From the NCBI GenBank assembly GCA_963674825.1, contig OY771587.1, positions 64,001-128,000 on the forward strand: 64,000 nucleotides of DNA, given 5' to 3'. This document shows positions 4,825 to 31,436 of the stretch, piece by piece. Numbering within the stretch: position 1 is the first letter of the stretch; every line of letters starts with the position of its first letter. This DNA comes from Candidatus Cloacimonadales bacterium. Lineage in GTDB: Bacteria > Cloacimonadota > Cloacimonadia > Cloacimonadales > JAIOQZ01. A program made the position numbers and the translations under genes. The notes below the pieces were generated by a model. It saw nothing but the letters and a program-made list of their open reading frames with translations, was not told the DNA's origin and made no database searches.

Positions 4825-5056
4825 GAGATCCTCATCTCCGCCGTGTTGAGAGATCCAGGGTTTTCATTCATCAAACCCTACTCTTCTCCCATAAGTGGGA
4901 GAAGGAGCTAAAACAACCATCTCAACTTTAACGTCCCAACGATATCTCAGAGACCCTCATCCCCCGCCTTCTCCCACAAGTGGGAGAAGGAGCTAACAGC
5001 CATCTCAACTTTACCGTCCCCTCGCCCACTTGTGGGAGAGGGACAGGGTGAGGGCT
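4825..5056. repeat. REP cluster (CCCTCATCCCCCGCCTTCTCCC-N-GGGAGAAGG family) at the 3' side of the DUF559 gene
   Basis: Copy with 39-nt insert at 4829-4908; clean copy at about 4953-4992; inverted copy tcccctcgcccacttgtgggagagggacagggtgaggg at about 5018-5055. Confidence 0.85.
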
Positions 5057-14994: not shown

Positions 14995-15028
14995 AAAAAA
15001 GCCCCTCTCCTCTTACGAGGAAAGGGGC
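14995..15028 (-). terminator. Rho-independent terminator of the dsbD-Omp28 cluster
   Basis: Minus strand reads GCCCCTTTCCTC-GTAA-GAGGAGAGGGGC-TTTTTT, about 30 nt after the stop at 15061. Confidence 0.85.
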
Positions 15029-15060: not shown

Positions 15061-17310
15061 CTATTTGATCAGCGCCATCTTTTGGATTGCGCTGCCGGTC
15101 TTTGTGGTCAGGCGAGCGAAGTAGATACCGCTCGAGACTTTCTTACCGTTATCGTCGTGACCATTCCAAACAACACTGGTTCCAGATTCGACCACGTCGT
15201 TATCGACGAGGGTACGAATCAGCTGACCCTTGATATTGTAAACAGCAAGGGTAATCGGCTGGTTGTCCGGGATGTTGAGCGAAATGGAGGTCTCAGGATT
15301 GAACGGGTTGGGATAAACCGCGATGGAAAGACCGTTCACTTCGGGAGCAATCGGATCTTCTTCGCTATCCATCCAGGGATTACCCATTCCACCGTAAGCA
15401 CCCATATCGGCTACAAGCGTGCCCATGGCAGGCCAGAGCGGTGAACCGGAGTTATCCGGATCTTCCATGTCTTGCTGATCGCCATTGGGATCGCCAGCAT
15501 CGATACAAGGTGACTCATCGGTCAGATACCATTCTGCTGCAAGGATATCATCAACGATACCAGCTTCGGCAGTTGGATTCGCGAAGAGCGGGTCCGCATC
15601 GATATTGCCGGTTCCGTCGTAGCCACCCGAAATACAGTTGTAGGTAGCGTAGAAATCGCCAAGCAGGTCGAGGAGCGGATCGTCTTCACCGATGATGATA
15701 TTGTTGGTGAGGGTCATATCCGAGTTGTACAGGAAGATGGTAGCGCCAGAGCTTCCTGCGCAGAGGTTGTTCGCGATGGTGTTATTGATAAGCACCGGAG
15801 CCGAATTCTCACGAGCACTGATCGCGCCAGACTGGTTAGCCTGGTTGTTCACGATGAAGTTGTTCGAAAGAACGGGCGAGGATGTTTCCATACCGATCGC
15901 ACCGGCAAGCGAACCGCCATTGTTGTTACCGAAGAAGCTCTTGCTGATAGAGACATCACCGGCGTTCAACATCTGGATCGCACCGCCCTGATCGGAAGCT
16001 GTGTTGCCGATGAAGCGGCAGTTCTGGATATCCACACCGGATTCTTCGATATAGATCGCGCTTTCGTCCGCGTTGTAGAACTCGCAGTTGTAAAGCATTG
16101 AAGTATTCTGGTTTGCGCCGATGAAATCGACACCGTTCCAAGTGTTGCGATCCGGTGTATTGAACATGATGGCGTCATCATCGGTAGCGTCAGCGATCAG
16201 CGTACCATTGACGATCATTCCGGTACCGGTCTGGCCGGTGATAACCGTACCCGGCTCGATAACGAGCTGAGATCCGGCTGGAACAACGATATCGCCAAGC
16301 AAGTGATACTCGCCGTACTGGGGATCCCAGTGACCGGCTACGTTACCGTAGATATTGCCAGTGTCCATCACATAGACGTAATCTTCCATGGTGATGGTGT
16401 CTGTTTGCTCACCGTCGGAAACGGTAAGGGATACAGTGTAAGAACCCGGTTCGGTATAAACCCATGCCGGATCTTCTTCTTCGCTATCGATTTCGCCGTC
16501 GCCGTCGAAATCCCATTCCCATGATACGAGGCCACCAGGAGGCATCGAAAGGCTGGTGAACTGAACGCCCAGCGCGGGAGGTCCGGACACAACGTCCGCC
16601 GTGAAATTCGCGCCAAACTGCATCAGTTCGCTCATCGCTGCCTGATGGATGGTGTGATCGCCGGAGATCGTCTGAATCAGAACGACGCCGCGGAGATCAT
16701 CAACACTGTCATATTCGAAATCGGCTCCAAGTGTCGCAGAGTAGGTTCCGGTCTCGCCTGTAACGGAGAGATCGAAATCCTGTGCTTCATAGCGACGCAC
16801 AACACAGAAGTAGTCGTCTGTATAATGCTGAGTGACGATGAACATGATCTTGTTGTTGTCCGTATCGATATCTCCAGTCATCAGAACATCAGCCTGAATC
16901 AGGAAGTTATCGGGATCGGACTGAACAAAAGCAACATTGATTTCCGCCGGAGCATCGTTACCGATTATCTGGTTGTATTTAACCAGATAACGCGGATAGG
17001 TCGTTCCGCCACCGACGTCTTCAAGGTAACCGCCGAACTGCGCATGCGGGATACCGCTTACGCCGTACATGCTTCCACGAGGGCTATAGTTAGGGCTCGT
17101 GGGGCAGGTTGCCTCATTGGTTCCACCATTCCAGATCAAAGGGATAACATTCTCGTTATCCGTGTTCAATTGAAGCAGCCCAGACCGAGCTGCGGGACAG
17201 TAGCCGCACCATGTCTGCGTAAACACTTCGCCGACCACCTGTATCTGGGTAGCCATTGCAAGTGACGCAGCAAGGAGCAGCAGCAAGAAGACGACTAATC
17301 TTCTAGACAT
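15061..17310 (-). CDS. Secreted multidomain protein: Omp28-like thioredoxin (WCGYC) + PKD + right-handed beta-helix + FlgD-Ig/T9SS-like CTD
   Basis: Signal peptide; EVFTQTWCGYCP...GIPH; PKD WEWDFDGDG...PGSYTVSLTV; N-rich beta-helix repeats; YPNPFNPETSI...YNIKGQ...WNGHDDNGKKVSSGIYF...KMALIK. Confidence 0.85.
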   Translation of the reverse strand: MSRRLVVFLLLLLAASLAMATQIQVVGEVFTQTWCGYCPAARSGLLQLNTDNENVIPLIWNGGTNEATCPTSPNYSPRGSMYGVSGIPHAQFGGYLEDVGGGTTYPRYLVKYNQIIGNDAPAEINVAFVQSDPDNFLIQADVLMTGDIDTDNNKIMFIVTQHYTDDYFCVVRRYEAQDFDLSVTGETGTYSATLGADFEYDSVDDLRGVVLIQTISGDHTIHQAAMSELMQFGANFTADVVSGPPALGVQFTSLSMPPGGLVSWEWDFDGDGEIDSEEEDPAWVYTEPGSYTVSLTVSDGEQTDTITMEDYVYVMDTGNIYGNVAGHWDPQYGEYHLLGDIVVPAGSQLVIEPGTVITGQTGTGMIVNGTLIADATDDDAIMFNTPDRNTWNGVDFIGANQNTSMLYNCEFYNADESAIYIEESGVDIQNCRFIGNTASDQGGAIQMLNAGDVSISKSFFGNNNGGSLAGAIGMETSSPVLSNNFIVNNQANQSGAISARENSAPVLINNTIANNLCAGSSGATIFLYNSDMTLTNNIIIGEDDPLLDLLGDFYATYNCISGGYDGTGNIDADPLFANPTAEAGIVDDILAAEWYLTDESPCIDAGDPNGDQQDMEDPDNSGSPLWPAMGTLVADMGAYGGMGNPWMDSEEDPIAPEVNGLSIAVYPNPFNPETSISLNIPDNQPITLAVYNIKGQLIRTLVDNDVVESGTSVVWNGHDDNGKKVSSGIYFARLTTKTGSAIQKMALIK

Positions 17311-17394
17311 CAAGTTCCTCCTTACGTTGCTGTTACGTTCTACGTAATAGTATATTTATTATGCAGAAATTTCAAAGATCGTTGCCGGAGGCCG

Positions 17395-19641
17395 TTACTT
17401 TATCAACGCCATCCTTGTGGTGACGGTGTGATTTCCGGCTGTCATTCGTGCGAAGTAGATACCACTTGAAACCGATTTACCTGCATTGTCGATGCCCTTC
17501 CATGTCAGATTCATCGACTGCGGTTTCTCGTTGTCGAGCAGCGTGTAAACCTTCTGACCACGAATGTTGTAGATCGCGACAGTCACTGGCTTCTGGCTCT
17601 CTTGAGCACTAAGCTGAAGCTGGATGGTCGTCTCAGGATTGAACGGGTTCGGGTAGACACTCATGCCGATCGAGCTGACGCTCGGCGGAATGGTCTCGTC
17701 TTCGTCGTTATCGACGTACGGAGCTCCGTCGCCGCCATACGCGCCCATATCGTTGGTCAGCGAGCCCATCGCCGGCCAAAGAGCATATCCTGTGTTGTCG
17801 GGGTCTTCCTGATCGTAGTAATCCTGCATGGGATTACCTGCATCGATACAGGGTGAACCTTCCTGAAGGAACCAGCGTGCCGCAACGCCGTCGTAATCGA
17901 CGCCACTGCCGGCAGACGGAGATGTGAACATCGGATCGGCATCGATATTCATCGTTCCTTCCCAACCACCTTCGATGTTCGAGAAATCAACCATCGGTGT
18001 ACTGTTGAGCGAATAGATGATCGAGCCTTCACCGCGCAAAATGCTGTTCATGATTTGCGGAGCTGCGTTGAACGTGAATATCGCACCACCGGATGTACCG
18101 GTATAGGTGTTATTCGCAATGGTATTGTTGTAGAAAATCGGTTCACTTCCACTCTTGAAGATCGCAGCACCGGCCGACATGCCTGTGTTGTTCACGAAAA
18201 TATTGTTCATGACTTCCGCTGAAGATGTCGTCATCTGAATCGCGCCGGAATTACTCGTACTGCTATTGTTCGCGAAAAGGCAACCGTTGATAGAGACATC
18301 AGGTGCGCTTGTCAGGTCAATCGCCGCAGGAACGCTTGCGCTGTGATTGTCATAGAACCAGCAGCCATCTACTTCCAGCGGGGCCGCATCGACGGTAATC
18401 ACCGTGTTCGTCGCACCGGAGAAACGGCAGTTGACAAACTGGTTATCCTGTTCCGTGTAGCGAATCTTCATACCCTTCCAGCTACCGTCTTCTATCGGAC
18501 GGAATACAATGGGATCACCATTACCGGCGTTCGCCACGATGCGTCCATTCACTTCGAATAGTGCGTTATTGGAAAGGATGATCTCCACACCAGGATTGAT
18601 CGTAAGCACCTCGCCTTCTTCGACTTTCACATCCCCGACGATCTCGTAGGGGCTGTATGTCGTGACCCAGGTACCTGCAACCGGTCCGGACGTGTTGCTG
18701 CCATCAGTGACCGTAATCAAGCCCTGAGCAACCGTTGTGGAGCTTTCATCATCTGTGTGGATGGTAAGACTTACGTCATAGACTCCAGGCGTGTCATAGA
18801 TCCAGAATGTGTTCTCATCCTGGCTGTCGATCGTACCATCGCCATTGAAATCCCATTCCCATGCGGTGATTTCACCAGCCGGGAAAGAATGGCTTTCGAA
18901 GCTTACAACCAGGTTCGCAGGTCCCTGCGTAATGCTGGCATCGATCACGGCAAGTGTTCCGGTGAACGGTGTCGAGACAGCCTGCAAGACTGGATGATTC
19001 CCTGAAAGACTCTGTACGACGACAACTGCTTTTACCCCCTGAAGATCCCAGGAAGAATCAAGTGTGACCGGATATTCGAAGTAGCCGGTTTGGCCCGACT
19101 GAGTAAGATCGAAGGTCTCGGCGTTATAATCCACTACGGTACAGAAGTATTCGTCGGTGAACGCATATGTGAGCATGTAGATGATACGATTGTTTGATGT
19201 GGTAACATTGCCGGTAAGCTCTACATTCGCCATGATAGCGAGCTCGCCGGAATTGTTGGTTCCCAGTTCGATATCGATATCGATCGGAGAGTTGTCATTG
19301 ATGATGCTGTTGTATTCAGTCAGATAGTAGGGATACATATCTGTACCGCCGCCGGAAACCTGTTCGGTTCCGCCGAAAACAGCAGTTGGAAGTCCGCTTA
19401 CACCATAAAGGTTGTACCGCGTACTATAACCGGGACTCGGATGTTCGCCATCACCCTCCCAGATGAGCGGAACGACGTTGTCGTTCTGTTCGAATAACTG
19501 AAGAAGCCCAGACCGGGCGTCAGGACAGTAGGGGCACCACGTTTCCGTGAAAACCTCCGCCAGTACCCCTATCTGCGTCGCCTGTAACAGCAACGCCGAC
19601 ATGAGCATCAGCAGGAGGAGCAGTAGTCGATTGGATATCAC
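17395..19641 (-). CDS. Secreted multidomain protein, paralog of 15061..17310 (WCPYC thioredoxin + PKD + beta-helix + CTD)
   Basis: GTG start at 19641 after AAGGAGG; EVFTETWCPYCP; WEWDFNGDG; SPCIDAGNP...LWPAMG...DMGAYGG; YPNPFNPETTI...SSGIYF...RMALIK. Confidence 0.85.
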   Translation of the reverse strand: MISNRLLLLLLMLMSALLLQATQIGVLAEVFTETWCPYCPDARSGLLQLFEQNDNVVPLIWEGDGEHPSPGYSTRYNLYGVSGLPTAVFGGTEQVSGGGTDMYPYYLTEYNSIINDNSPIDIDIELGTNNSGELAIMANVELTGNVTTSNNRIIYMLTYAFTDEYFCTVVDYNAETFDLTQSGQTGYFEYPVTLDSSWDLQGVKAVVVVQSLSGNHPVLQAVSTPFTGTLAVIDASITQGPANLVVSFESHSFPAGEITAWEWDFNGDGTIDSQDENTFWIYDTPGVYDVSLTIHTDDESSTTVAQGLITVTDGSNTSGPVAGTWVTTYSPYEIVGDVKVEEGEVLTINPGVEIILSNNALFEVNGRIVANAGNGDPIVFRPIEDGSWKGMKIRYTEQDNQFVNCRFSGATNTVITVDAAPLEVDGCWFYDNHSASVPAAIDLTSAPDVSINGCLFANNSSTSNSGAIQMTTSSAEVMNNIFVNNTGMSAGAAIFKSGSEPIFYNNTIANNTYTGTSGGAIFTFNAAPQIMNSILRGEGSIIYSLNSTPMVDFSNIEGGWEGTMNIDADPMFTSPSAGSGVDYDGVAARWFLQEGSPCIDAGNPMQDYYDQEDPDNTGYALWPAMGSLTNDMGAYGGDGAPYVDNDEDETIPPSVSSIGMSVYPNPFNPETTIQLQLSAQESQKPVTVAIYNIRGQKVYTLLDNEKPQSMNLTWKGIDNAGKSVSSGIYFARMTAGNHTVTTRMALIK

Positions 19642-19700
19642 TCCAGCCTCCTTTGTATTTGTTGACACGTAATTTTCGTACAGCACATATTTATGCTAAG

Positions 19701-21074
19701 CTATTTCAGCAGAAGCATCTTTTTAGCAGCGGTGTTCGTTTCCCCTTCGAGGCGATAGTAATATACGCCGCTGGTTACATCGTTGTTATTGTCGTCTTTG
19801 CCATCCCAGACCACGCTGCCCTGACCCTGATGTGTTTTCAGGCCGGTGATTCGTCTTACCTGCTGACCACGAACATTGTAGATTACAAGGTCGGTGTTCT
19901 GAGGATTGTCGTTTGTCAGCGCGAAGCGGATAGTTGTTTCCGGGTTGAACGGATTCGGTGAGTTCTGTCCAAGCACCACTCCTGCAAACGGGACTGTGTC
20001 TTCATTTGTGGGGCTGCCGGTTTCATAAGTGAAATGGATCGTATTTGTGGTTCCATGCTCAGGAACAATATTGAAATTGAAATCTGCAAGGCCATTGGAA
20101 TTAATGTTCGGGATGTTGAAATCCAATGCCATGGTTTCGCCCTGTGCCAGTGTGAATTCCCATTCTGTCGGGTGGCAGCCGCCTTCACCGGCTTCGTCAA
20201 CATGACAGAACATGACCATCCAGCTTTCCGGAGCTGAATTAACCTCGATCGAAGCCGTGAACGACATCTCGATGCCCAAGTTCTTCACAAAGAAATGTTC
20301 GCTTTCATACTGATACATCTCGCCAGCATAAGCCGGTCCGGTTACGTCAGTTTCAAATGGAACGCCGATGCGATAAGCATTGCTTGAAACAGCATAGTTC
20401 GAAGCAGTTTGAACGATCGTGTTGTCGTTATCCTGAACATACGCGATTATGTTCAAGTTTGTGGAAACCCAGCCGGCATCGATGGTGAATGTACCGGTGA
20501 ATGTCTGCTCGGAACCCTGTCCGGTAATTGCAATACCCTCATGAAGGATTTGACGAGCTACGTGGGTAGCGTTGGCCAGATCATCTTCAATAAGGATAAA
20601 ACGGATGTTTCCGGTAGTGATTTCAAATGTGTCAGAAAGCATCTCAACCGATACGCTGTACGCGCCGGTTGCTGCATCGAAACTGTCGATCATGATGTCG
20701 ATCGGAGATGCGTCAAATTTGCTTCCCTCAACGATCGCGGAATAATCCGTGCCATCAGCCACGGTATCGCCACCACCAACAACGGTTGACGCACCATTGA
20801 ATACCGCGGTGGGGAATTCGGTAAGGCCATACAGAGCGATCATCGCGTCCACATCCTCATTGCCCAATTCGCCATTGAAATATTGAACCGGTACCCAGAA
20901 GGATTTATCCCAGTTAGATTCAGTAGCAGCCATACCATCCTGAGCATCTTGCTGCTCCCCTGCGGTAAGGTCATTTCCAATCTCAGCCATCATGATCTTT
21001 GGCGTTGCCGTGAATGTGGCGAAAAGCCCGACCGCCATCAAGCTGATAATCATGATTAAATTCACACGCTTCAT
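19701..21074 (-). CDS. Secreted Omp28-like protein lacking CxxC, with Ig-like domain and T9SS-like CTD
   Basis: ATG 21074 after GGAGG; YGLTEFPTAVFNG...GGG aligns with the neighbouring paralogs; FCHVDEAGEGGCH; QNSPNPFNPETTI...SGVYYY...KMLLLK. Confidence 0.8.
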   Translation of the reverse strand: MKRVNLIMIISLMAVGLFATFTATPKIMMAEIGNDLTAGEQQDAQDGMAATESNWDKSFWVPVQYFNGELGNEDVDAMIALYGLTEFPTAVFNGASTVVGGGDTVADGTDYSAIVEGSKFDASPIDIMIDSFDAATGAYSVSVEMLSDTFEITTGNIRFILIEDDLANATHVARQILHEGIAITGQGSEQTFTGTFTIDAGWVSTNLNIIAYVQDNDNTIVQTASNYAVSSNAYRIGVPFETDVTGPAYAGEMYQYESEHFFVKNLGIEMSFTASIEVNSAPESWMVMFCHVDEAGEGGCHPTEWEFTLAQGETMALDFNIPNINSNGLADFNFNIVPEHGTTNTIHFTYETGSPTNEDTVPFAGVVLGQNSPNPFNPETTIRFALTNDNPQNTDLVIYNVRGQQVRRITGLKTHQGQGSVVWDGKDDNNNDVTSGVYYYRLEGETNTAAKKMLLLK

Positions 21075-21111
21075 TGTATCCTCCAATATCAATATATTAT
21101 TTTCAATTTAT

Positions 21112-21258
21112 CCCTCATCCCCCGCCTTCTCCCACTTCATGGGCGAAGGAGCTATAAGGATGCCCTTGGGGGCCGTCGCTACGGTCTCCATTGAACCCTC
21201 AACCCATCTCACATGTCGCGTTCCCTCTCTCGCTTGCGGGAGAGAAACAGGGTGAGGG
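21112..21258. repeat. REP doublet (same family as the DUF559 flanks) inside the cluster
   Basis: ccctcatcccccgccttctcccacttcatgggcgaagg ... ccctctctcgcttgcgggagagaaacagggtgaggg. Confidence 0.8.
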
Positions 21259-21262
21259 TTTC

Positions 21263-22759
21263 CTAAAACGTCGTCGTCAGTTCCAGCAAAACGCCTTCAA
21301 AGGCAGATTGCTGGCGGCAGATTCCATTACGGCAGACCTTGCCGCCTTTCTGCTTGCCTGCGAACAATGTCATATAGGTATCATCGGTGATGGGCGCGGA
21401 CACTTCTCCACCTACCCACCACGGTGCTTTGTCGATATCGCCCGTTTCTTCGTATTCGGTCTCGGCTGTCAGCGACATATTCCAGGAATTGATCGCCCAA
21501 TCGACCTGAAGAAGCGGTTCCACATGATCGGCTTCAACCTGACCATGCTTCTTGGTTACCATTTCGTATTCGGCACGCGCCATTACCGGCATTTCGAATA
21601 GATAGAAATCGAATGCCAGTGCGGGTGTGACTTCCTTTTCCCAAGTTTCGTTCACTTCGTTGCGATACTCGAGATGCTCGAAGTCCGCAGTAATGGTGAA
21701 CGATTCGAATTCGTGCTTCCCCTGCAGGAAGAGGTTCGCTTGCTGGTAGTCGTCATCCGAGCTCCAGGCTTCGGCGTAATTTACAAGCACTTCCGTCGCG
21801 TAATCCGGGATGAAACGGACTTCGCCCATAAATCCCTCTTCGTCCTCACCCGGCTTGAGTCCGCTTTCGGTAAGCGGCTCGTCGGCGTGGTTCATAGTGG
21901 GGATATCCTGTAGCGGCTCGATGGAATCGGTGCGGTAGTTGAAGTCTTCGTACTTCTTGTAAGCACCGGTGATGGTGAACATAGGAACGTAGATGGTCAT
22001 GTTGGTATAGAGGCCCTCGCCGTCACGGTTTTCGGTAAGCAGCTCGGTCTCTTTCATTTTAGCATATTCACCGTAGAAATCAATGATATCCATGTTGAAA
22101 TTTACATGACCGCCGATGGTGGTCAACTTCGAGAATTTATCGGTCTCGGAATTGGTCTCCGGATCGATCGTGGTGTAGCCCTGGCGTAATCCGAGCAAGG
22201 TCATGCCCATGCGCAGCGGCTTGGCGATCTTCACTTCGAGATCAGCACCGGAGACGATATCGTTCTTGTCGTCACCATTGCGTTCGATGGGGTAAGCGGC
22301 GTACATGCCCTGGACAGTAAAGATATCGCGGGTGTAGCGGACCTTGGCACCTTCGAGGCGTGTATCGTGATCAAGGTCGTCGTCTTCCCAACTGCGGAAG
22401 ATCATACCAGAGCCATAAGAGCCTTCCATCGTACCGGCATGCGCCATGAGGTTTTCGGTTTCATAGGTGATCCAGCGTTCGTCCCATTGGTAAGAGATAT
22501 CCTCTTCCTCGAGCTGATCGACCATCTCACCTTCATAGCTGCTGTACTTAGGATATCCGGCAATGAACGCCATGCCGAACGTCACATTCTTATAATTAAG
22601 GCGGAACGAAAAATCATCTTCGAAATAATGCTTCAAGGAATCGCCTTCCGCCTCGCGATAGCGGTATTCAATTTCATTCACGCCGGTGATGGAGAAGGTT
22701 TCCTCCGCGAAAATCAGAGCCGACGAGATGACAAGTAATATCAGAATCAAATATCTCAT
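21263..22759 (-). CDS. Outer-membrane beta-barrel protein (DUF6029-like)
   Basis: Signal peptide; alternating beta-strand pattern; YGSGMIFRSWED; C-terminal GGKVCRNGICR...GVLLELTTTF ending in Phe. Confidence 0.8.
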   Translation of the reverse strand: MRYLILILLVISSALIFAEETFSITGVNEIEYRYREAEGDSLKHYFEDDFSFRLNYKNVTFGMAFIAGYPKYSSYEGEMVDQLEEEDISYQWDERWITYETENLMAHAGTMEGSYGSGMIFRSWEDDDLDHDTRLEGAKVRYTRDIFTVQGMYAAYPIERNGDDKNDIVSGADLEVKIAKPLRMGMTLLGLRQGYTTIDPETNSETDKFSKLTTIGGHVNFNMDIIDFYGEYAKMKETELLTENRDGEGLYTNMTIYVPMFTITGAYKKYEDFNYRTDSIEPLQDIPTMNHADEPLTESGLKPGEDEEGFMGEVRFIPDYATEVLVNYAEAWSSDDDYQQANLFLQGKHEFESFTITADFEHLEYRNEVNETWEKEVTPALAFDFYLFEMPVMARAEYEMVTKKHGQVEADHVEPLLQVDWAINSWNMSLTAETEYEETGDIDKAPWWVGGEVSAPITDDTYMTLFAGKQKGGKVCRNGICRQQSAFEGVLLELTTTF

Positions 22760-22768
22760 GCCTTCCGC

Positions 22769-23266
22769 CTATTCGCCTGTGACCGGCTCGGGATTTAGAG
22801 CTTTCACGATCTCTTCTTCCAGGTGCTTCTCGTCGCCCTTCTGGTAGCCTACATGCGAAAAGACGATCTCGCTGTCCTTGTTGATAATCAGCGTATGTGG
22901 CGGATTCTGCGCGTTGAGGGCTTTATAGACCTTCATTTCCGGATCGAGAAGGGTCAGGAATTCGAAGCGATTTTTCACATAGCGAACAGCGTCTTGCTTC
23001 TTGGAGGGCTTATCTACCGAGATACAGACAACCGTGATCTCGTCCTTATATTTCTTCTGGAGAACGTCCAGCTCAGGCATTTCCTTTTTACAGTTTTTGC
23101 ACCAGGTGGCCCAGAAGCTGATCACGACAGGTCCCTTTTCCAAAAGCTTGGAGAGAGTAACCTGATCCCCATTGATATCTTCAAGAGAAAAATCCTGTGC
23201 TTTATCTGCCGCGAAAAGTCCCGCAGACAGTGCCGCTATCATGATTGTGATTAAAATCGTACGCAT
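22769..23266 (-). CDS. TlpA family disulfide reductase (periplasmic thioredoxin)
   Basis: Signal peptide; DFSLEDING; SFWATWCKNCKKEMP; PHTLII. Confidence 0.93.
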   Translation of the reverse strand: MRTILITIMIAALSAGLFAADKAQDFSLEDINGDQVTLSKLLEKGPVVISFWATWCKNCKKEMPELDVLQKKYKDEITVVCISVDKPSKKQDAVRYVKNRFEFLTLLDPEMKVYKALNAQNPPHTLIINKDSEIVFSHVGYQKGDEKHLEEEIVKALNPEPVTGE

Positions 23267-23280
23267 CGTAACTCTCCTTC

Positions 23281-24690
23281 CTATATACCTTCGATCGGAA
23301 CTTCGATCACGTTATAAACTTTGCAATCGTTCGCATATTCTGCATGCATGGTCTGAAGCCACATGACCAAAACCGCATCATCCGGCATGTCACCTTCGTA
23401 GTTGATCACGAGACTGTAGCCGGTACCGCCATCATACCCCATAAGCTCATCGATTGGGTTTTTTCCCTTCCAGAGCACCGCGTTGTGGTAATAACCACCA
23501 CTGTTAGACTGTGCGGTCTCTTCAATAATGGCGTAGCGGAGATAAAGATCGGTATCGTCAAAATATTCATCCAGTGAGTAATCGAGCCATACACTCAGTT
23601 CCTGCTCCGTAGCTCCCCACTTGGCTGTTGCTTTCGAGATCTCGGCCTGCGCATTGATTGAGGCGTAATCGAGAAGCGGTGTTTCATACTGAGATTGGTT
23701 GGAGATACCACCATTCTTGACGAGCTGTCCCTGAAATACCGCGGTCGGGCATTCGATGCTGCCGAGATAGTAATCCAGCAGATCGTCGTTGTCGTCATAG
23801 AAGCCATCATAGCTATCACTGATATGGTATTCAACGTAGTAGAAGATATCGCCATAAAGTTCTTTGAGGTCATGAAGCGCTTCTTCGGATGTCGGGCAGT
23901 TCGGGCACCAGGTACCGGTGAAGAGCTCGACCAGCACTTTCTGCTTGCTGGTGTCCGGTGCCTCGTTTCCATTGCCGCAGAATCTGTATTCACCACCGAC
24001 AACCGTATACGTGTCATCAACCCGCAGCGTATAGCCGGTGGAATTTTCTGTAAGCTCATATACAAACTTGCTTTCGTACTCGTCGTGATCGAGGACTTCG
24101 TAATCTACGCCAAGCGATGGTGACATATCGTCGAACAGGCCAAACAGCGAATCACGGTCAACACCATTATTGTAGTAGTCGTCTGTGAAGAAATATTCGA
24201 GTGAGGTGAAGTCGTTCGCGACAATCGCATCCAATAGATCTGTGAAATAGGCGGCCTGCCTGTCACTGAAAGATTCCACAGCACCATTGCCGACAAACTT
24301 GAATTCGCCGTTGATCTTACGAACGTAGTCGGTCATCGTTACGGTATTGTAGCCATCAATATTGATGGCATCCAGATACAGAACCCATTTCAAGATGGAA
24401 ACTTCACCCTCTTGGTATTTCTGGATTTGCACGGTGGACTGATACTGATAATCTCCGTAATTCTGTGCGAAAAGCGACAGCATATCCGAGTAGCTCTGGC
24501 CGTCGTTCATGTAGTCGTTATCATAGTATTGCATCAGAGCGGAAAGGTCATCGGCAGTACGGATCGAAGCAACCGCATCGGAAAGATCGTCGAAGAAATC
24601 GGTAAGGTTTTTGTCGAACTCATTGTCGAAACGATCACAGCCGGACAACGCCAGTAGCACCGCCACGACAAGCAAGAATAATCTCTTCAT
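23281..24690 (-). CDS. Lipoprotein with two NTF2-like repeats and an Omp28-like thioredoxin domain
   Basis: ATG 24690; lipobox LALSGC; two repeats ending FKFVGNG and YRFCGNG; VLVELFTGTWCPNCP...YH...CPTAVFQG. Confidence 0.82.
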   Translation of the reverse strand: MKRLFLLVVAVLLALSGCDRFDNEFDKNLTDFFDDLSDAVASIRTADDLSALMQYYDNDYMNDGQSYSDMLSLFAQNYGDYQYQSTVQIQKYQEGEVSILKWVLYLDAINIDGYNTVTMTDYVRKINGEFKFVGNGAVESFSDRQAAYFTDLLDAIVANDFTSLEYFFTDDYYNNGVDRDSLFGLFDDMSPSLGVDYEVLDHDEYESKFVYELTENSTGYTLRVDDTYTVVGGEYRFCGNGNEAPDTSKQKVLVELFTGTWCPNCPTSEEALHDLKELYGDIFYYVEYHISDSYDGFYDDNDDLLDYYLGSIECPTAVFQGQLVKNGGISNQSQYETPLLDYASINAQAEISKATAKWGATEQELSVWLDYSLDEYFDDTDLYLRYAIIEETAQSNSGGYYHNAVLWKGKNPIDELMGYDGGTGYSLVINYEGDMPDDAVLVMWLQTMHAEYANDCKVYNVIEVPIEGI

Positions 24691-24747
24691 ATCAGAACTC
24701 CAGTCATTATTTCCTAATGAAACCAATCGACAGCATCTTATCAAGGA

Positions 24748-26460
24748 TTATTTGCCGATTTCTTTTAATTCATCTTTGACCATCGGTTTTGTGATGATCT
24801 CCGGGAATACCACCGGTTCATCCTCGCCTGGCCTGTAGAGAAGATAAAGAGGAACACCTGCACGGTCAAACTTGTGCAGCCATTCAATGATAAGCGGATC
24901 CTTGCGTGTGTTGTCACCTCTTAGAAGTTCTACGCCATATTTCTCGAATTGCTCTTCCATATCTTCTGTGAAAAGGACGGTCTTCTCGTTGGCTTTACAG
25001 GTCATGCACCATTCAGCACCGAAATCCACAAATACCGGCTTACCGTCATCGATATATTCCTGAAGCAATTCCGGCGAGAATTTCTGCCAGCCTTCTTCCA
25101 CCTCGGCCCCGCCTTCAGTGCTTTCGAACCGTAGCAGGAACATTGCCGAGAAGACCACTACAGCAATTGCCGCGATGAGCGCAATCCACTGCTGTGACTT
25201 CTTGTGGTGAGGCTTCGCAAAGCTACCGTAGATCCAAGACGCCAGTGCCAAAGCCGCGATGAACCAGAGCACACGCATGAAGTTTCCGCCACCACCAACC
25301 AGCGCATAAACAGTGTTCAGCAGAAAGATGGTGGTTCCCATAAGAAGGAAGCCCATGAATTCTTTGAATACATTCATCCAATTGCCGGGCTTGGGGATTG
25401 CCTTGATCACGCCAGGCCAAAATGCCAGTAAGATGAACGGGAAGGCCAGGCCGAGCCCGATCAGCAGGAAAAAAACGATAATTAAGAGAGGTGGCTGGAT
25501 AAAAGCGAACCCGAGCGCTGCTCCAAGGAATGGAGCCGTGCAAGGTGTTGCCAGAAGAACCGCCACAATCCCGCTGAGGAACGATCCCCAGTGGCCGGTC
25601 TTGCCGGAAGCTTTCGAAGCCAGGCTCATCCCCGGTGCGGAGATGATGAAGACGTCGAACAGCGACAGGCCGAAAACGAAGATGAGCGAGGTCAGAACCA
25701 TCACGAACCCGAAGTTCTGGAACTGGAATCCCCAGCCCACCGACTCGCCCGAAAGCTTTATAATGATCACCACAGCGGCAAGCACGAGGAACGAGACCAG
25801 GATTCCCGCTGTGTAAGCCAGCGACCCTTTCATAATCTCTTTCTTGTGATGCTGGCTCTGGTTGACCAGGTGAATAGCCTTGATAGAAAGCACAGGCAGG
25901 ACGCATGGCATGATGTTCAAGATCAAACCACCGATGAATGCCATTAGCAGGAACTTGATAATATCGACTGCGGATGTTCCAGCTTTCGAGACAGTTTCCG
26001 GCTCTGCCGATTTCTCAGACACGACAGCGGTCAGCTTGAACGGTGCGGAAACTTCAAACTCCTCCGGAAACAGACACGAACCCTGCTCATTGCAGATCTG
26101 GAAACCGGCTGCCACGTTTAGTGTGTAATCTCCAGGAGCGACATCTTTTCCAAGCTGCATTGAACGCTTGACAACGACTGTTCCAGTATATTCGATGAGG
26201 CCGTCTTCGTCAGTGTGTCCATCAGGATATTCAGTTTTACCGAACGTAAAGCCGTCCATTTCCGTCGGCTCGATATAAAAATATTCTTCTTGAAATGTCT
26301 GATGCATCCCCTCAGGGAATATGTAGGTAACGTGAAGATACGCCTTGCCGTCGGAACCGATTTCCTGCGGCAAGATTTCCGCTTTGATAATTGTTTCCTG
26401 TGCAAAAAGAGCAGTAGAAAGGAGCAGGAACAGGAGAGTTATAATCCCCAACGACCTCAT
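24748..26460 (-). CDS. dsbD: Thiol:disulfide interchange protein DsbD (alpha, beta and gamma domains)
   Basis: ATG 26460 after GGAGG; alpha QICNEQGSC; TM NIMPCVLP and ATPCTAPFLG; gamma DFGAEWCMTC...GVPLY. Confidence 0.93.
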   Translation of the reverse strand: MRSLGIITLLFLLLSTALFAQETIIKAEILPQEIGSDGKAYLHVTYIFPEGMHQTFQEEYFYIEPTEMDGFTFGKTEYPDGHTDEDGLIEYTGTVVVKRSMQLGKDVAPGDYTLNVAAGFQICNEQGSCLFPEEFEVSAPFKLTAVVSEKSAEPETVSKAGTSAVDIIKFLLMAFIGGLILNIMPCVLPVLSIKAIHLVNQSQHHKKEIMKGSLAYTAGILVSFLVLAAVVIIIKLSGESVGWGFQFQNFGFVMVLTSLIFVFGLSLFDVFIISAPGMSLASKASGKTGHWGSFLSGIVAVLLATPCTAPFLGAALGFAFIQPPLLIIVFFLLIGLGLAFPFILLAFWPGVIKAIPKPGNWMNVFKEFMGFLLMGTTIFLLNTVYALVGGGGNFMRVLWFIAALALASWIYGSFAKPHHKKSQQWIALIAAIAVVVFSAMFLLRFESTEGGAEVEEGWQKFSPELLQEYIDDGKPVFVDFGAEWCMTCKANEKTVLFTEDMEEQFEKYGVELLRGDNTRKDPLIIEWLHKFDRAGVPLYLLYRPGEDEPVVFPEIITKPMVKDELKEIGK

Positions 26461-26772
26461 GAAAAACCTCCATGAATCCAATGTGTTTGGTTTTTTTCGA
26501 TCGGTCTCGATCTGGTTACAGTTGAAACGCAACATCGTCTATTTTGTTCACAGCGTCAATTATTTTTATTATCAAATGACGCCTCGAATTCAGTCGATAA
26601 TCCTAACCATTTCTTTAATAACGTGTTGCAATTCCAAACAATCTTCGCCATTTTCACGTAAACAGGCGTATAACTCCGTTTACGTCAAGAAAAAATATCT
26701 CTTGCATAAATCCCCGCGCTGATGTAATCGGGGATTCAATGATCTAGAAGGATTATGCAAAAAGGAGTCCAG

Positions 26773-28839
26773 ATGTCCAACTATTTTATGGAAACCCAGC
26801 ATCATGAATGGATTCTAACGAATCGACTCGGTGGCTATTGCCTTGGCACCGGGAATCTCGTCAACCAGCGCAAATACCACGGACTGCTCATCGCGGGATT
26901 ACGCAATATGGAGCGATGGCATCTGGTGGAAAGTATGGAAGAGAAGATTGAGTGGCGTGGCGAAGAGATATACCTCGATAGCAACAACTACAGCAACTGC
27001 ATCTATCCAGAGGGATTTCTTCACCTGGTCAAATCCTGGCTTCTGCCCTACCCAACCTTCCTCTATTCCACCGCGCACCACGACGACGCCATCCTGATCC
27101 TCAAAGAGATCATGATGGACAAAGAATCCAACACCGTGATGATCCGCTATACAAACCTCGGAGACCATCAGCTTCATTTCCAGCTGCGACCCAAGCTCTC
27201 CATGAGATTGCACCACGACCTGAATGCCCCTGGCACATGGGACAACGAACAGCTCAACACCATCATCGGGATTCAGGGCGAACGCTCCTTCACCACCTTC
27301 AGACCCAGCAACCGTCTGGAGCTGTGCGGCTGTTCATCCATGGGTGAGTTCCACTACGAAACGATTATCTACCGCAACGTATATTACCCATGGGAAGTGA
27401 TGCTCGGCTACAAAGGTACCGGCGACATGATCGCTCCGGTGCGGCTCGATTTCGACCTCAAAGTAGGCGAGCACAATTGCGTGCTGTTCAGTAACGAACC
27501 AGTCGAAGATACCGAAACCATGATCAAACGGATCACCAATTATCATGGAGATATGCCCAAGCCGTCAGACTACCCAGTACGTAAGCCGGACCACTCCATT
27601 CTTGAGAATCTCGACATGAAAGATTCGAAGCTGTTCAATGTACAAGACTACCGTAAGCTACTGCATCTGGCTTACGATGACTTCGTACTGGAAGCGGACA
27701 TCATCGCCGGATTCCCGTGGTTCGGAGCCTGGGGACGCGACACGATGATCTCGCTGGAAGGACTTTATCACACAGCCGATGGCATCGACACGGCCTGGGA
27801 AATTCTGAATCGCTACGGCAAGAAGATCCGGCGCGGCCTGCTTCCCAATGTACTGCCCGAATCGGGAGCAAAAGCGAATTACGACTCAATCGATGCGGCA
27901 CTTTGGTACGTTACGAGGTTGCATCAGGTAGCCAGCCGCAAAGCCGAAGCACTTACAACCAAGAAAGATAAGCGCGCGATATGGGAAACTGCTTTCAAAT
28001 ACGCCGACAAGGTTATTGAAGGTATTATGAAGCACAAGACCCACTATCACATCCGCGAAGATGGGCTGGTGGAGCTGCAGAAGAACTTCGCCAACGCAAC
28101 CTGGATGGATGCTCGTATCGACGGCAAAGAAGTCACGCCAAGGCACGGAGCGCCTATCGAGATCAACGCGCTATGGTTCAACGCTCTTAAGTTCTACGGG
28201 CTCATCCATGAAAGCCTGATGGAGCTGCTGCCCAAAAAGGAACGCTTCAAGCTCTTCATCAATTTGACCGAGATGATCGACAAGGTACACGCGGCGTTCG
28301 ATAAATTCTGGATGGGCGATTACCTCGCCGACCGATTGGAGGGTGATAAGCGCATCGAGGAAGTTCGTCCGAATGCAGTAATCGCGTGCGGTCTGCCCTT
28401 TGAGATCGTCGATTACGATAAGATGAAGATGGTCTTCGAACATGCAAAGAAGGAGCTCTACACCGAGTATGGACTCCGCACCCTTTCACCGAAGGACTAC
28501 CGCTTCAGAAAGAAATACATCGGCTCGCAGATCGAGCGCGACAAGGCATATCATCAGGGAACCGTGTGGGCCTGGCCGCTGGAAACCTACGCCAAATTGT
28601 TCGTCAGAATCTACGAGGAAGAACTTACCAAACAGGATTTGCAGGAGGGACTGGTGGATATTATCCACAAATTCCGCAACGGGTTCCTGCGAGGCCACAT
28701 CGCGTCGGTTGCTGAAGTATGGGACGGCGATAAACCGCACTTCCCCAAGGGTTGCCCTGCGCAAGCCTGGAGCGTGGCAGCAGTCTACAATATCGAAAAA
28801 ATGATCGAACACCTTAGCGATGAAGAGGATAACCAATGA
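26773..28839 (+). CDS. Glycogen debranching enzyme (amylo-alpha-1,6-glucosidase, GH133 archaeal-type)
   Basis: EWILTNRLGGY, RKYHGLL, AGFPWFGAWGRDTMI, TWMDA, EINALW, YHQGTVW, GCPAQAWS. Confidence 0.93.
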   Translation: MSNYFMETQHHEWILTNRLGGYCLGTGNLVNQRKYHGLLIAGLRNMERWHLVESMEEKIEWRGEEIYLDSNNYSNCIYPEGFLHLVKSWLLPYPTFLYSTAHHDDAILILKEIMMDKESNTVMIRYTNLGDHQLHFQLRPKLSMRLHHDLNAPGTWDNEQLNTIIGIQGERSFTTFRPSNRLELCGCSSMGEFHYETIIYRNVYYPWEVMLGYKGTGDMIAPVRLDFDLKVGEHNCVLFSNEPVEDTETMIKRITNYHGDMPKPSDYPVRKPDHSILENLDMKDSKLFNVQDYRKLLHLAYDDFVLEADIIAGFPWFGAWGRDTMISLEGLYHTADGIDTAWEILNRYGKKIRRGLLPNVLPESGAKANYDSIDAALWYVTRLHQVASRKAEALTTKKDKRAIWETAFKYADKVIEGIMKHKTHYHIREDGLVELQKNFANATWMDARIDGKEVTPRHGAPIEINALWFNALKFYGLIHESLMELLPKKERFKLFINLTEMIDKVHAAFDKFWMGDYLADRLEGDKRIEEVRPNAVIACGLPFEIVDYDKMKMVFEHAKKELYTEYGLRTLSPKDYRFRKKYIGSQIERDKAYHQGTVWAWPLETYAKLFVRIYEEELTKQDLQEGLVDIIHKFRNGFLRGHIASVAEVWDGDKPHFPKGCPAQAWSVAAVYNIEKMIEHLSDEEDNQ

Positions 28840-30182
28840 GAATCCTAATGTACACATGGGAATTCCCGCCGCTTATCGCGGGAGGGCTTGGCATGGCCTG
28901 TTACGGCATGGTTAAAGCGCTCCTGAAGCAGAATGTAGAGATTGACCTGATCATTCCAACCCGGGAAGCAGTCTATTTCCCGATGCGCACGCCCGAGGAC
29001 GCCGATACCCTGCCGGTTGTGTTTCTCGACGAGAAGAAGCAGGAAGAATACTATACAACCACCTTTGAGGACGATAACCAACGTTTCAAGTACATCGGTA
29101 TCACCGAAGCGCCCGAGACCTATAAGCAGGTTGAAGAGATCAGCGAATCGATCCGGCTTGCTGTGGAAGAGCAAACCGATGAGGACGAAGAGAAAATTGA
29201 TCGCGAACCTGGCTACGAAGACATCTGGGACAACATCGCACACCATTTGATGGGAAGCGACGAGATCTTCAAACGGGTGCAGGAATACACCCTGCGCGCG
29301 GAACGCTACGCAAAAATCCTCCAATATGATGCCATCCATTCGCACGATTGGCTCTGCTATCCGGCAGGTATGATCGCACGAAAAATATCCGGCAAACCGC
29401 TGGTTTCACATATCCATGCCACCGAATTCGATCGCGCCGGAGGGCCGGGCAATCCGAACGTCCACAACATCGAATTCACCGGCATGACTTACGCCGATTA
29501 CGTGATCGCCGTCTCACAATACACCGCGGAAATGATCATCTCCCGCTACCGGATTGACACCGGTAAAATCCGTATCGTGCACAACGCCTACATCGTCGAT
29601 GACAACATCCAGAAATGCGAGAAGCGTCTCTTCCACGGCACGACGATTCTTTTCCTGGGGCGAATCACGCTGCAGAAAGGGCCGGAGTTCTTCCTCGACG
29701 TGGCCAAAAGCGTGTTGGAGAAGCATCCCGACGCGCGATTCATCATGGCTGGCAGCGGTGACATGGCACGCAAGATCATCCAGCGCTCAGCCGCGCTCAA
29801 GATGCGAAACCGCTTCCTCTTCACTGGATTCCTGAACCGCAAGGAAGTCGACGACATCCTGAAGATGTCCGATATCTATATGCTTCCATCCATCTCCGAG
29901 CCATTCGGTATCGCGCCTCTGGAAGCGATGGCCTACGGCGTCACGGCCGTGATCTCTAAGCAGTCGGGAGTATCGGAAGTTGTAGAGAACGCATACAAGA
30001 TCGATTTCTGGGATGTGCCGCGCATGGTGAAGGTGATCAACGACCTGATCGAGCACCCCGCAAAGCGCCGCAAGATCGGTATCGCGGGAATGCAGGAAGT
30101 CAATCAGATCCAATGGGACGACGCCGCGACAAAGATCAAGGCGGTCTATCAAGAAGCAATCGACGAATTTCAGCAGCAATAA
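28836..30182 (+). CDS. Glycosyltransferase family 4
   Basis: WEFPP...GGLG, HDW, HATE, GRITLQKG, EPFGIAPLEA. Confidence 0.93.
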   Translation: MRILMYTWEFPPLIAGGLGMACYGMVKALLKQNVEIDLIIPTREAVYFPMRTPEDADTLPVVFLDEKKQEEYYTTTFEDDNQRFKYIGITEAPETYKQVEEISESIRLAVEEQTDEDEEKIDREPGYEDIWDNIAHHLMGSDEIFKRVQEYTLRAERYAKILQYDAIHSHDWLCYPAGMIARKISGKPLVSHIHATEFDRAGGPGNPNVHNIEFTGMTYADYVIAVSQYTAEMIISRYRIDTGKIRIVHNAYIVDDNIQKCEKRLFHGTTILFLGRITLQKGPEFFLDVAKSVLEKHPDARFIMAGSGDMARKIIQRSAALKMRNRFLFTGFLNRKEVDDILKMSDIYMLPSISEPFGIAPLEAMAYGVTAVISKQSGVSEVVENAYKIDFWDVPRMVKVINDLIEHPAKRRKIGIAGMQEVNQIQWDDAATKIKAVYQEAIDEFQQQ

Positions 30183-30194
30183 ACGGAGCGCATT

Positions 30195-31436
30195 ATGTTG
30201 AACATCGTATTTTATTTCCAGGTTCATCAACCCTACCGGCTTCGGCATCTGAACATCCTCAACGCCCGATCCGCCGAAGACTATTTCGATAACGGCCTCA
30301 ATCAGATCGTCATGCAGCGCGTTGCCGACCGCTGCTATCTCCCCGCGAATCAGCTCATGCTCAAGCTGCTCAGGAGGTTCCACGGCAAGTTCAAGATAGC
30401 CTATTCCATCACCGGATGCGCCATCGAACAGATGAAGCTCTACGCGCCCGAAGCACTGGAATCGTTCCACGCTCTCATCGATACCGGCCACGTCGAGATG
30501 ATCGGCGAGACCTATTATCACTCGCTTTCGAGTCTTTACGACGTCGATGAATTTCTGGAACAGGTGGGCCAGCACAAGAAAATGCTGAAGGAGGAGTTCG
30601 GCGTCACACCTACCGTCTTCCGCAACACTGAGCTGATCTACGACGACATGCTCTCAAACCTGATCTATGAGGAAGAGGGCTTCAAGGTAATCCTCACCGA
30701 GGGCGCTGACCGCATCCTGCGCTGGAGAAAACCGCTCCACGCTTACAAAAATTTCACCAAGGACATCTTCCTGCTGCTCAAGCACTACAAGCTGTCCGAC
30801 GACATCGCGTTCCGCTTCTCCGATCCTGAGTGGGACGAATATCCGCTCACCACGGAGAAATTCGTGGACTGGATCAACAAGCTCAACCTGAGCGAGACGG
30901 ATGACCGCAACCTGTTCCTCAATATTTTCATCGACTACGAGACCTTCGGTGAACATCAGTGGGCCGAAAGCGGTATCTTCAAGTTCATGGAGAAGCTGCC
31001 TGAGACGGTGCTGGTGCAGCCCAACCTCGGCTTTTGTTTCCCTTCGGAGGTGGAGAAATTCACCAATTACCAACCCGAGAGCATCACCGTACCCGAGCCG
31101 GTCTCCTGGGCCGATCTCGACCGTGATCTCTCCGCATGGCTGGAAAACGACATGCAGTTTAACGCGATCGAAACGCTCTACGAGCTGCTGCATAAGATCA
31201 AACAGGAGAATCGTACCGATCTGCTTCGAACCGCTCGACTCCTTTCGACGTCCGACCATTTCTACTATATGTCCACCAAGTATTTCCAGGATGGCGACGT
31301 CCATAAGTACTTCTCGCCTTACGACTCACCGGAACAGGCGTATATTTACTACATCAATGCGCTGGCGGACCTTGAGGAGAAATTGAAAGAGCCTTGCGAA
31401 TCGGTTGCTAATGACGCGGCAAATGCAACAGGATAA
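30195..31436 (+). CDS. Glycoside hydrolase family 57 (alpha-amylase-like)
   Basis: FQVHQP, ETYYHS, FRNTELIY, LSDDIAFRFS, DYETFGEHQW, TSDHFYYM. Confidence 0.94.
   Translation: MLNIVFYFQVHQPYRLRHLNILNARSAEDYFDNGLNQIVMQRVADRCYLPANQLMLKLLRRFHGKFKIAYSITGCAIEQMKLYAPEALESFHALIDTGHVEMIGETYYHSLSSLYDVDEFLEQVGQHKKMLKEEFGVTPTVFRNTELIYDDMLSNLIYEEEGFKVILTEGADRILRWRKPLHAYKNFTKDIFLLLKHYKLSDDIAFRFSDPEWDEYPLTTEKFVDWINKLNLSETDDRNLFLNIFIDYETFGEHQWAESGIFKFMEKLPETVLVQPNLGFCFPSEVEKFTNYQPESITVPEPVSWADLDRDLSAWLENDMQFNAIETLYELLHKIKQENRTDLLRTARLLSTSDHFYYMSTKYFQDGDVHKYFSPYDSPEQAYIYYINALADLEEKLKEPCESVANDAANATG

Follow-up and report, generated by a model that had tools for sequence, protein, structure and literature searches.

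Whether thiol reducing power can be delivered to the surface of a bacterial cell is the question raised by a seven-gene operon of a Candidatus Cloacimonadales bacterium. The operon occupies 15061-26460 on the minus strand of a 64,000-nucleotide stretch of DNA (positions 64,001 to 128,000 of contig OY771587.1, assembly GCA_963674825.1), which is called the window below. It ties the cell's only DsbD to a TlpA-type reductase, a plug-less 24-strand barrel of the DUF6029 family and surface-directed thioredoxin-fold proteins, some of which carry a likely selenocysteine in related genomes. Pathways built on DsbD or CcdA run as a cascade from cytoplasmic thioredoxin, and their clients are cytochrome c, Sco/CoxB and mis-oxidised proteins. 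To our knowledge, all the characterised ones stop in the periplasm; we know of no route that takes thiol reducing power to the bacterial surface, and of no explanation for the electron source of HBP35, a surface thioredoxin of Porphyromonas gingivalis. For the present operon, a dedicated reducing pathway aimed at thioredoxin-fold proteins of the outer membrane and the surface is well supported, and it is likely that reducing power is carried to one or the other of these places; electrons may also pass across the outer membrane itself. The gene set can be regarded as a new branch of the DsbD-dependent reducing pathways, one with its end point at the outer membrane, and it provides a working hypothesis for two families, DUF6029 and Omp28.

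DsbD, TlpA and the DUF6029 barrel as a conserved unit

The seven open reading frames (ORFs), numbered G1 to G7 from the upstream end, are separated by 57, 14, 9, 188, 59 and 84 nt. Gaps of 9-84 nt, with a 188-nt spacer as the one exception, a lone terminator at the end and flanks of unrelated genes mark the seven genes as one conserved operon. The ORF starts reproduce every gap given in a first-pass annotation of the stretch, and all the cysteine motifs listed there were found in the seven proteins: CNEQGSC, PC/PC and WCMTC in DsbD, WCPNC in the lipoprotein G2, WCKNC in TlpA, CRNGIC in the barrel, WCPYC in G6 and WCGYC in G7.

DsbD (G1; 24748..26460, minus strand) was taken in its 570-residue form, from the ORF starting MRSLG. 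Its membrane domain matches DsbD_TM (PF02683; 1.3e-18, residues 196-409) with C186 and C307 in PC motifs, one cysteine per half, and its C-terminal thioredoxin domain (Thioredoxin_7, 2.9e-14) holds C485MTC488. The N-terminal DsbD-alpha-like domain, with C123-X5-C129, reaches 20.2 bits against DsbD_N (6e-4; Pfam cut-off 25), and the protein as a whole scores 168.5 bits against NCBIfam NF001419 (2.3e-49), under the 330-bit cut-off. The three-domain architecture, all six catalytic-type cysteines and a secreted TlpA/ResA-type reductase two genes downstream are shared with the pathways that lead from DsbD to CcmG, ResA, TlpA, DsbC or DsbG. Whereas the known branches end at periplasmic clients, the present one is linked to an outer-membrane barrel and to thioredoxin-fold proteins that are lipoproteins or cargo of a type IX secretion system (T9SS), without cytochrome c maturation. 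Indeed, DsbD is the sole DsbD_TM match in the 3.89-Mb genome, which is complete in a single contig (99.6% complete) and gave no match to Cytochrom_C_asm (PF01578), DsbB or VKOR. The earlier view that DsbD has no cytochrome c role here is borne out by the absence of a PF01578 match in the genome and of any CxxCH in the seven operon proteins (motif check). The presence of DsbD inside the operon, in a genome context that excludes its usual roles, is the new contribution of this locus. Since DsbD and TlpA are present, some orthologues of G6 and G7 carry UxxC and no DsbB or VKOR match was found in the genome, a reductive polarity of the gene set is supported.

TlpA (G3; 22769..23266, minus strand) begins with a hydrophobic signal peptide without a lipobox cysteine and matches AhpC-TSA (3.9e-21) and Redoxin (3.8e-19) in Pfam and, weakly, SCO1-SenC (6.3e-3). 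C56 and C59 of WCKNC and the cis-proline P123 are invariant in its alignment (A4), whose profile finds first in the PDB 2m72, an 'uncharacterized thioredoxin-like protein' (6e-31), and then ResA and TlpA. By analogy with the characterised pathways DsbD would reduce TlpA in vivo, and the pairing is supported by linkage because both genes lie in the same operon and the genome encodes a single DsbD_TM protein.

The barrel (G4; 21263..22759, minus strand) scores 90 bits against DUF6029 (PF19494; gathering cut-off 27) and is the one copy in the genome. Its AlphaFold2 (AF2) model (pLDDT 84.1) is usher-like, with about 24 strands and no separate plug domain, and the C-terminal residue is aromatic (F498). 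The likeness to the FimD/PapC chaperone-usher pores is one of fold only, as those pores contain a plug and periplasmic domains of their own and serve to export pilins, whereas DUF6029 has neither domain, is 6-8% identical and carries an invariant C-terminal cysteine hairpin. The only two cysteines of the barrel, C476 and C481, lie in this hairpin (GGKVC476RNGIC481) ahead of the last strand and flank an N478-G479 turn, which joins two long strands (461-477 and 480-497) in the DSSP string of the model. The Lys/Arg-rich tip is predicted to be extracellular from the DSSP string, the turn lengths and the C-terminal F498, since the membrane-embedded strand halves would be the C-proximal and N-proximal ends. 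The hairpin may either relay electrons as a way-station or act as a structural staple. The barrel cysteines are as conserved as the relay idea had called for: all 79 Cloacimonadota loci whose barrel sequence extends to the C-terminus retain GGK[VI]CxxGxC. A complex prediction for barrel residues 20-498, TlpA 20-165 and G2 238-469, run without controls, gave 0.02 and 0.01 with G2 as the partner (mark 0.32) and left TlpA unscored; it speaks neither for nor against binding. DUF6029 has been linked by HHpred to Wzi-like polysaccharide porins, without redox context (PMC9603273). Polysaccharide export was set aside as a role for the operon, which has no OPX, Wzx/Wzy or glycosyltransferase gene; the divergent glycogen genes beside it are not found in the loci of relatives.

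Within the order, DUF6029 is found in 39 of 41 genomes, and in all 36 of good quality. In 20 genomes that represent 12 families, TlpA is without exception the immediate upstream neighbour of the barrel (20 of 20), and the order DsbD-lipoprotein-TlpA-barrel is kept in 18 of these 20 (12 families), the other two having only a DsbD-alpha-like piece (L050) or no lipoprotein (L051); the sole sampled genome of a thirteenth family (G010) gave no match. A second set of 80 loci from species-representative genomes, which overlaps partly with the 20, was scored under a strict distance rule. TlpA adjoins the barrel in 74/77, the three misses being partial barrel hits with TlpA upstream in the gene-order list; the lipoprotein is present in 69/69, DsbD lies upstream in 54/56 and downstream in the other two, a gene of the G5/G6/G7 type follows downstream in 62/67, and a beta-helix giant occurs in 18/44. 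In eight loci (L035, L048, L061, L063, L104, L116, L124 and L128) double DsbD hits show that DsbD is immediately preceded by a short additional gene of the DsbD-alpha-like kind.

Distant DUF6029 proteins also exist. Five of them (P0038-P0042) are 21-23% identical to the window barrel over 49-89% of its length in a profile search; a sixth (P0043), to which its source gives the name Lentimicrobiaceae, has a BLASTP match to no more than 9% of the window barrel. A C-terminal CxGGxC hairpin is common to all six. With P0038-P0043 as the query, 80 metagenome loci were collected, which carry no taxon names and include 75 unique barrels, and they were scanned with hidden Markov models (HMMs) built from the Cloacimonadota orthologues. 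Of the 70 loci whose sequence extends upstream of the barrel, 64 have a same-strand TlpA gene immediately before it, as does one more whose barrel is split, and an Omp28-like ORF is found within 3.5 kb of the barrel in 55/75, with CxxC in all 68 such ORFs. By eye these neighbours fall into three kinds: short lipoproteins just downstream, longer divergent lipoproteins upstream, and long proteins with an N-terminal thioredoxin domain and T9SS-like tails. Because TlpA and Omp28 recur in the metagenome loci and DsbD only rarely, the conserved core is TlpA-DUF6029-Omp28(CxxC), and DsbD and the two-cysteine T9SS protein are Cloacimonadota additions. The synteny of DUF6029, TlpA, Omp28 and DsbD, on which the first-pass annotation had leaned, thus holds in the order, and the core trio extends beyond it.

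TlpA and the barrel are even joined in one polypeptide. P0032 (648 aa) is an in-frame fusion with Pfam matches to Redoxin, AhpC-TSA and DUF6029, and the locus L024 has TlpA and barrel in one frame; the two fusions are 44% identical, which indicates that the fusion has been maintained across divergence. As the N-terminus of the barrel is periplasmic, the fusion tethers TlpA to the periplasmic rim; this tethering is all that the fusions display with regard to a conduit. The synteny in Cloacimonadota, the core trio in distant loci and the TlpA-barrel fusions support the view that the operon genes belong together.

Thioredoxin-fold proteins of the outer membrane and surface

G2 (23281..24690, minus strand) is a CxxC lipoprotein of the HBP35/Omp28 type. 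It consists of a lipobox, two NTF2-like repeats, a thioredoxin fold with WCPNC (C262/C265) and a cis-proline, and an HBP35/Omp28-type beta-sandwich. The top Foldseek match of its AF2 model (pLDDT 85.4) is HBP35 (5y1a; E 1.1e-9, TM 0.52 on the target, 256 columns). C18, R20, C262, C265 and P315 are invariant in its alignment (A2), whose profile matches a thioredoxin (1fo5, 2.4e-6) and 5y1a (5e-3) in the PDB, and the CxxC is kept in 72 of 72 Cloacimonadota lipoproteins. G2 had no Pfam family at E <= 0.01 and matches the NCBIfam Omp28 lipoprotein model NF033782 with 39.3 bits (4.2e-10), under the cut-off of 150. The residues that follow the lipidated cysteine of Omp28-type lipoproteins are conserved, as C-[DNE]-R-[FY] in Cloacimonadota and as C-D-x-[IV]-[ED] in the distant loci, where the latter is seen in the short downstream lipoproteins. 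They may form a sorting or docking motif.

The other three candidates are T9SS cargo. The claim of T9SS-type export is supported, as the type A C-terminal domain (CTD) model TIGR04183 is matched over its cut-off by G5 (31.9 bits), G6 (38.1 bits) and G7 (40.5 bits), and SprA (503.5 bits) and PorU (593.5 bits), both over their cut-offs, are present in the genome. G5 (19701..21074, minus strand) combines an Omp28-like domain, which passes the Pfam cut-off (PF11551; 7.3e-9, 36.1 bits against 34.9), with a two-cysteine beta-rich domain and a tail that also matches Por_Secre_tail. The cysteine pair attributed to this CTD protein in the first-pass annotation was found at C290/C300, and both columns pass 80% consensus over 51 rows; the pair lies outside the Omp28-like domain, in the separate beta-rich one. 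A protein-atlas comparison of this mid domain returned T9SS-tail clusters only, below 0.9. G6 (17395..19641, minus strand), with a GTG start at 19641 and GGAGG five bases 5' of it, and its paralogue G7 (15061..17310, minus strand) both have an HBP35-like CxxC domain right behind the signal peptide, followed by PKD, a right-handed beta-helix region and the T9SS tail. Pfam finds PKD_4 and Por_Secre_tail in G6, and PKD_4 and NosD (3.9e-4) in G7; G6 reaches 21.1 bits against Omp28 (cut-off 34.9). All three cargo proteins match NCBIfam Omp28_seleno (NF045500) at 1e-12 to 4e-14 (G6 9.4e-13, G7 4.2e-14), under the 200-bit cut-off, and the window proteins use cysteine. The local match of G7 to HBP35 (5y1a) is VVGEVFTQTWCGYCP.

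An iterated search found the Omp28/HBP35-like domain in only five ORFs of the genome, four of them in the operon. The fifth gene (genome C1:7588-8601, plus strand; L214:2589-3602) is solitary and encodes 338 aa, about the size of HBP35, with CDGC in place of WCxxC and a T9SS tail. About 205 ORFs of the genome match the T9SS CTD of G7 in a phmmer search, a very large cargo set for 3.9 Mb.

When TGA is read as selenocysteine, three orthologues of G6 and G7 show UxxC at the active site (WUSYC, WUGYC and GUPYC, at L052:11573, in the same genome as L074, L056:12353 and L057:5516). A check for selenocysteine insertion sequence (SECIS) elements found a small hairpin about 15 nt 3' of each UGA, whose fold z-scores (0.62, -0.47 and -0.02) are not significant and which serves as a hint only. 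Judged from their sequences, the three are likely to be selenoproteins, in agreement with the name of the NCBIfam family NF045500, 'Omp28-related selenoprotein', and selenocysteine at this site argues for catalysis. A thioredoxin-like fold with UxxC has been described as GOS_C, with 74 selenocysteine sequences (Zhang and Gladyshev, 2008; available text of PMC2398784). Two of the three orthologues (L056 and L057) come from contigs labelled Armatimonadota that bear a full Cloacimonadota-type operon, with 35% barrel identity; the label could reflect mis-binning or mislabelling.

HBP35 (PG0616; PDB 5Y1A), which the first-pass annotation did not bring up, is the known precedent for a T9SS-exported surface thioredoxin. 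According to the available text of PMC2907840, it lies at the cell surface, reduces insulin in vitro in a manner that needs C48/C51, binds hemin and supports growth at low hemin, and what its thioredoxin domain does physiologically is described there as unknown; that text makes no link to DsbD, TlpA or a barrel. Its thioredoxin-like domain, with W-C-G-Y-C-P, sits immediately behind the signal peptide, as does the CxxC domain of G6 and G7, and it also has a beta-sandwich and a T9SS CTD. However, it is a single protein of 344 residues that was studied for hemin binding, whereas G6 and G7 add PKD and a beta-helix and G2 is a lipoprotein with NTF2-like repeats. P. gingivalis also encodes PG2175, with a thioredoxin domain, two locus tags away from the Omp28 protein PG2173, and both occur in outer-membrane vesicles (available text of PMC13744359); PG2173 shares the Omp28 family with G5, which is over the Pfam cut-off. 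No paper connecting DUF6029, TlpA and Omp28, and no published function for this trio, was found in the searchable literature, subscription journals and bioRxiv supplements lying outside the search.

Reach of the reducing pathway

In the mechanism favoured here, DsbD would pass cytoplasmic electrons to periplasmic TlpA, as it does to CcmG, TlpA or ResA elsewhere; TlpA would sit at or in the periplasmic mouth of the plug-less barrel and, working there, hand the electrons to Omp28/HBP35-type thioredoxin-fold proteins. The acceptors would be the lipoprotein G2 and the T9SS cargo G5-G7, acting outside the periplasm. Their task would be the reduction of external disulfides or of other oxidised substrates, such as those in proteins digested by this peptide fermenter, or else the protection of surface thiols. 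This chain, from DsbD through TlpA at the DUF6029 barrel to Omp28/HBP35-type proteins at the outer membrane and the cell surface, is put forward tentatively, as an account with somewhat less than an even chance of being right. A stronger form is possible, although we regard it as doubtful: DsbD-reduced TlpA may plug the usher-sized barrel mouth and re-reduce surface cysteine or selenocysteine thioredoxins through the barrel, possibly via the cysteine hairpin, so that the whole would be a heme-free protein-thiol wire. If true, such a wire would be a renewable extracellular disulfide reductase for bacteria of the Fibrobacterota-Chlorobiota-Bacteroidota (FCB) group and would explain the electron source of HBP35. 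It would work like MtrCAB of Shewanella, to which it has no sequence relationship; there the carriers are decaheme cytochromes, whereas here, without heme, they would be cysteine or selenocysteine pairs that need protein-protein contact at each step. The relay, if true, would bring a new principle into the bioenergetics and redox biology of the envelope; if it is not true, the genes would still make up a widespread maturation system dedicated to cysteine proteins of the outer membrane.

Of the trans-envelope reducing chain proposed in the first-pass annotation, the linkage of the genes, the conserved cysteines and the reductive polarity stand; the crossing of the outer membrane stays conditional, the barrel having one cysteine pair, which is predicted to be extracellular. 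Several points weigh against the crossing. A single barrel pair cannot by itself span the membrane and carry electrons through it, and it may be a structural staple, for which reason the trans-membrane relay is held tentatively; structural disulfides typically take the form of such a CX4C pair spanning a tight hairpin. The cysteine hairpin is kept in 6/6 distant DUF6029 members and a regular expression for it matches 65 of the 75 unique metagenome barrels, while DsbD lies within the locus in only 3/75, so the hairpin is a hallmark of the DUF6029 family and not of its DsbD-linked version. T9SS cargo cross the periplasm folded, and TlpA could therefore do its work on G5-G7 ahead of their export, in which case no trans-membrane relay would be required. 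The Omp28-like domain of G5 has lost its CxxC. Contact or electron transfer between the periplasmic and the surface partners would have to be assumed, as would the predicted surface exposure of G2. Its acidic N-terminus, CDRFDNEFD, does not fit the published lipoprotein export signal, K-(D/E)2 or Q-A-(D/E)2 (available text of PMC5080379), and is uninformative on surface exposure.

The exclusiveness of the DsbD and the need for a surface reductase can likewise be questioned. Such organisms live under anoxic, often sulfidic conditions, which makes the need doubtful. Two further TlpA-like ORFs, one with a lipoprotein-type N-terminus, lie in a MarR-OsmC-thioredoxin-AhpC/TSA cluster at 3.812 Mb; DsbD therefore probably has other clients and is not exclusive to the operon. 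Made up of glutaredoxin-like, MarR, OsmC, Thioredoxin_2 and AhpC/TSA-lipoprotein genes, this cluster (genome C1:3811000-3813500; L213:5092-7447) resembles a unit for organic-peroxide stress, and its exported thioredoxins would likewise rely on the single DsbD.

Among the alternatives, the one that survives best confines all the chemistry to the periplasm. While the barrel, the lipoprotein and the T9SS cargo are in transit, DsbD and TlpA would see to it that their cysteines stay reduced or pair correctly, no electrons would be supplied after insertion by the beta-barrel assembly machinery (BAM) or export by the T9SS, and the genes would cluster since these clients depend on a reductase of their own. 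Both T9SS cargo and the precursors of barrels do pass through the periplasm, every client has conserved cysteines, and ResA, CcmG and TlpA are known maturation factors for cytochromes and Sco; as DsbB and VKOR have no match in the genome, repair of mis-oxidation would have to be reductive. However, a chaperone-like reductase needs no tether to one client, and the adjacency of TlpA and barrel in nearly all loci and their fusion in two genomes are left unexplained. Moreover, the clients are thioredoxin-fold catalysts, some with selenocysteine, which points to turnover over one-time folding. We judge periplasm-only maturation unlikely, at about one chance in a few.

Import of an oxidised small substrate, such as disulfides, polysulfide, selenium or metal species, is still less probable. 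In this scheme the barrel would be an uptake channel, the Omp28-type proteins would capture the substrate at the cell surface and TlpA would reduce it at the periplasmic exit. The pairing of barrel and lipoprotein is a common FCB uptake design, BtuB-BtuG and SusCD-type entries occur among the fold matches, the barrel is large and without a plug domain, and HBP35 binds hemin and supports growth at low hemin (available text of PMC2907840). On the other hand, the lack of a plug also counts the other way: there is neither TonB box nor plug, an open 24-strand pore would leak, and the operon has no inner-membrane transporter gene. Furthermore, the many thioredoxin-fold proteins that bear T9SS tails and beta-helix domains resemble extracellular enzymes and not binding lids.

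An envelope defence against oxidative stress seems slightly more improbable again. Here TlpA and the Omp28-type proteins would be thiol peroxidases or would repair oxidised surface proteins on oxygen exposure, and the barrel would be only an anchor. The AhpC-TSA and Redoxin matches of TlpA agree with this, as do selenocysteine forms, which are common in peroxiredoxin-like families (available text of PMC2398784). However, the available text of PMC2907840 holds no positive result for stress protection by HBP35, no regulator lies in or beside the operon, and it is the separate MarR-OsmC-AhpC/TSA cluster that resembles the stress system. Finally, heme or metal handling, in which the CxxC sites would bind hemin or metal and DsbD and TlpA would keep the ligands reduced as TlpA does for the copper sites of Sco and CoxB, is very improbable. 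The hemin binding of HBP35 and the matches of TlpA to SCO1-SenC (6.3e-3) and of G7 to the copper-binding beta-helix NosD (3.9e-4) speak for it; against it, that binding is independent of the CxxC region (available text of PMC2907840), the two matches are weak and under curated cut-offs, and no cytochrome c maturation match exists in the genome.

Terminator, flanking genes and spacer

The operon ends at a hairpin with a T-run (15001..15028, minus strand), of 12 pairs, 8 of them GC, followed by TTTTTT directly past the last stop codon. It is the strongest terminator-like site of the region, in agreement with the single strong terminator claimed before, and is an intrinsic-terminator-like site by consensus match only; terminator-like sites were no more numerous in the scan than in shuffled sequence. 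Downstream lie housekeeping genes unrelated to the operon, for GcvH, guanylate kinase (Gmk), UDG and DnaB. Upstream lies a divergent glycogen cluster (26755-31436, plus strand) that encodes a debranching enzyme (GDE_N/GDE_C), a GT4/starch-synthase-like transferase and a GH57 protein; it is absent from the redox loci of relatives in the synteny comparison of 20 genomes.

The 188-nt intergenic spacer between the barrel and G5 (21093..21262, no strand assigned) had been annotated as a repetitive extragenic palindromic (REP) element. Two of its pieces, at 20-43 and 139-170 and 22-32 nt long, do recur in the genome (blastn-short), at only 3 to 4 other sites, so that the spacer holds a low-copy repeat and not an abundant REP of the classic type. 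One copy of the repeat lies inside the window, at 4954-4977 (genome 68954-68977).

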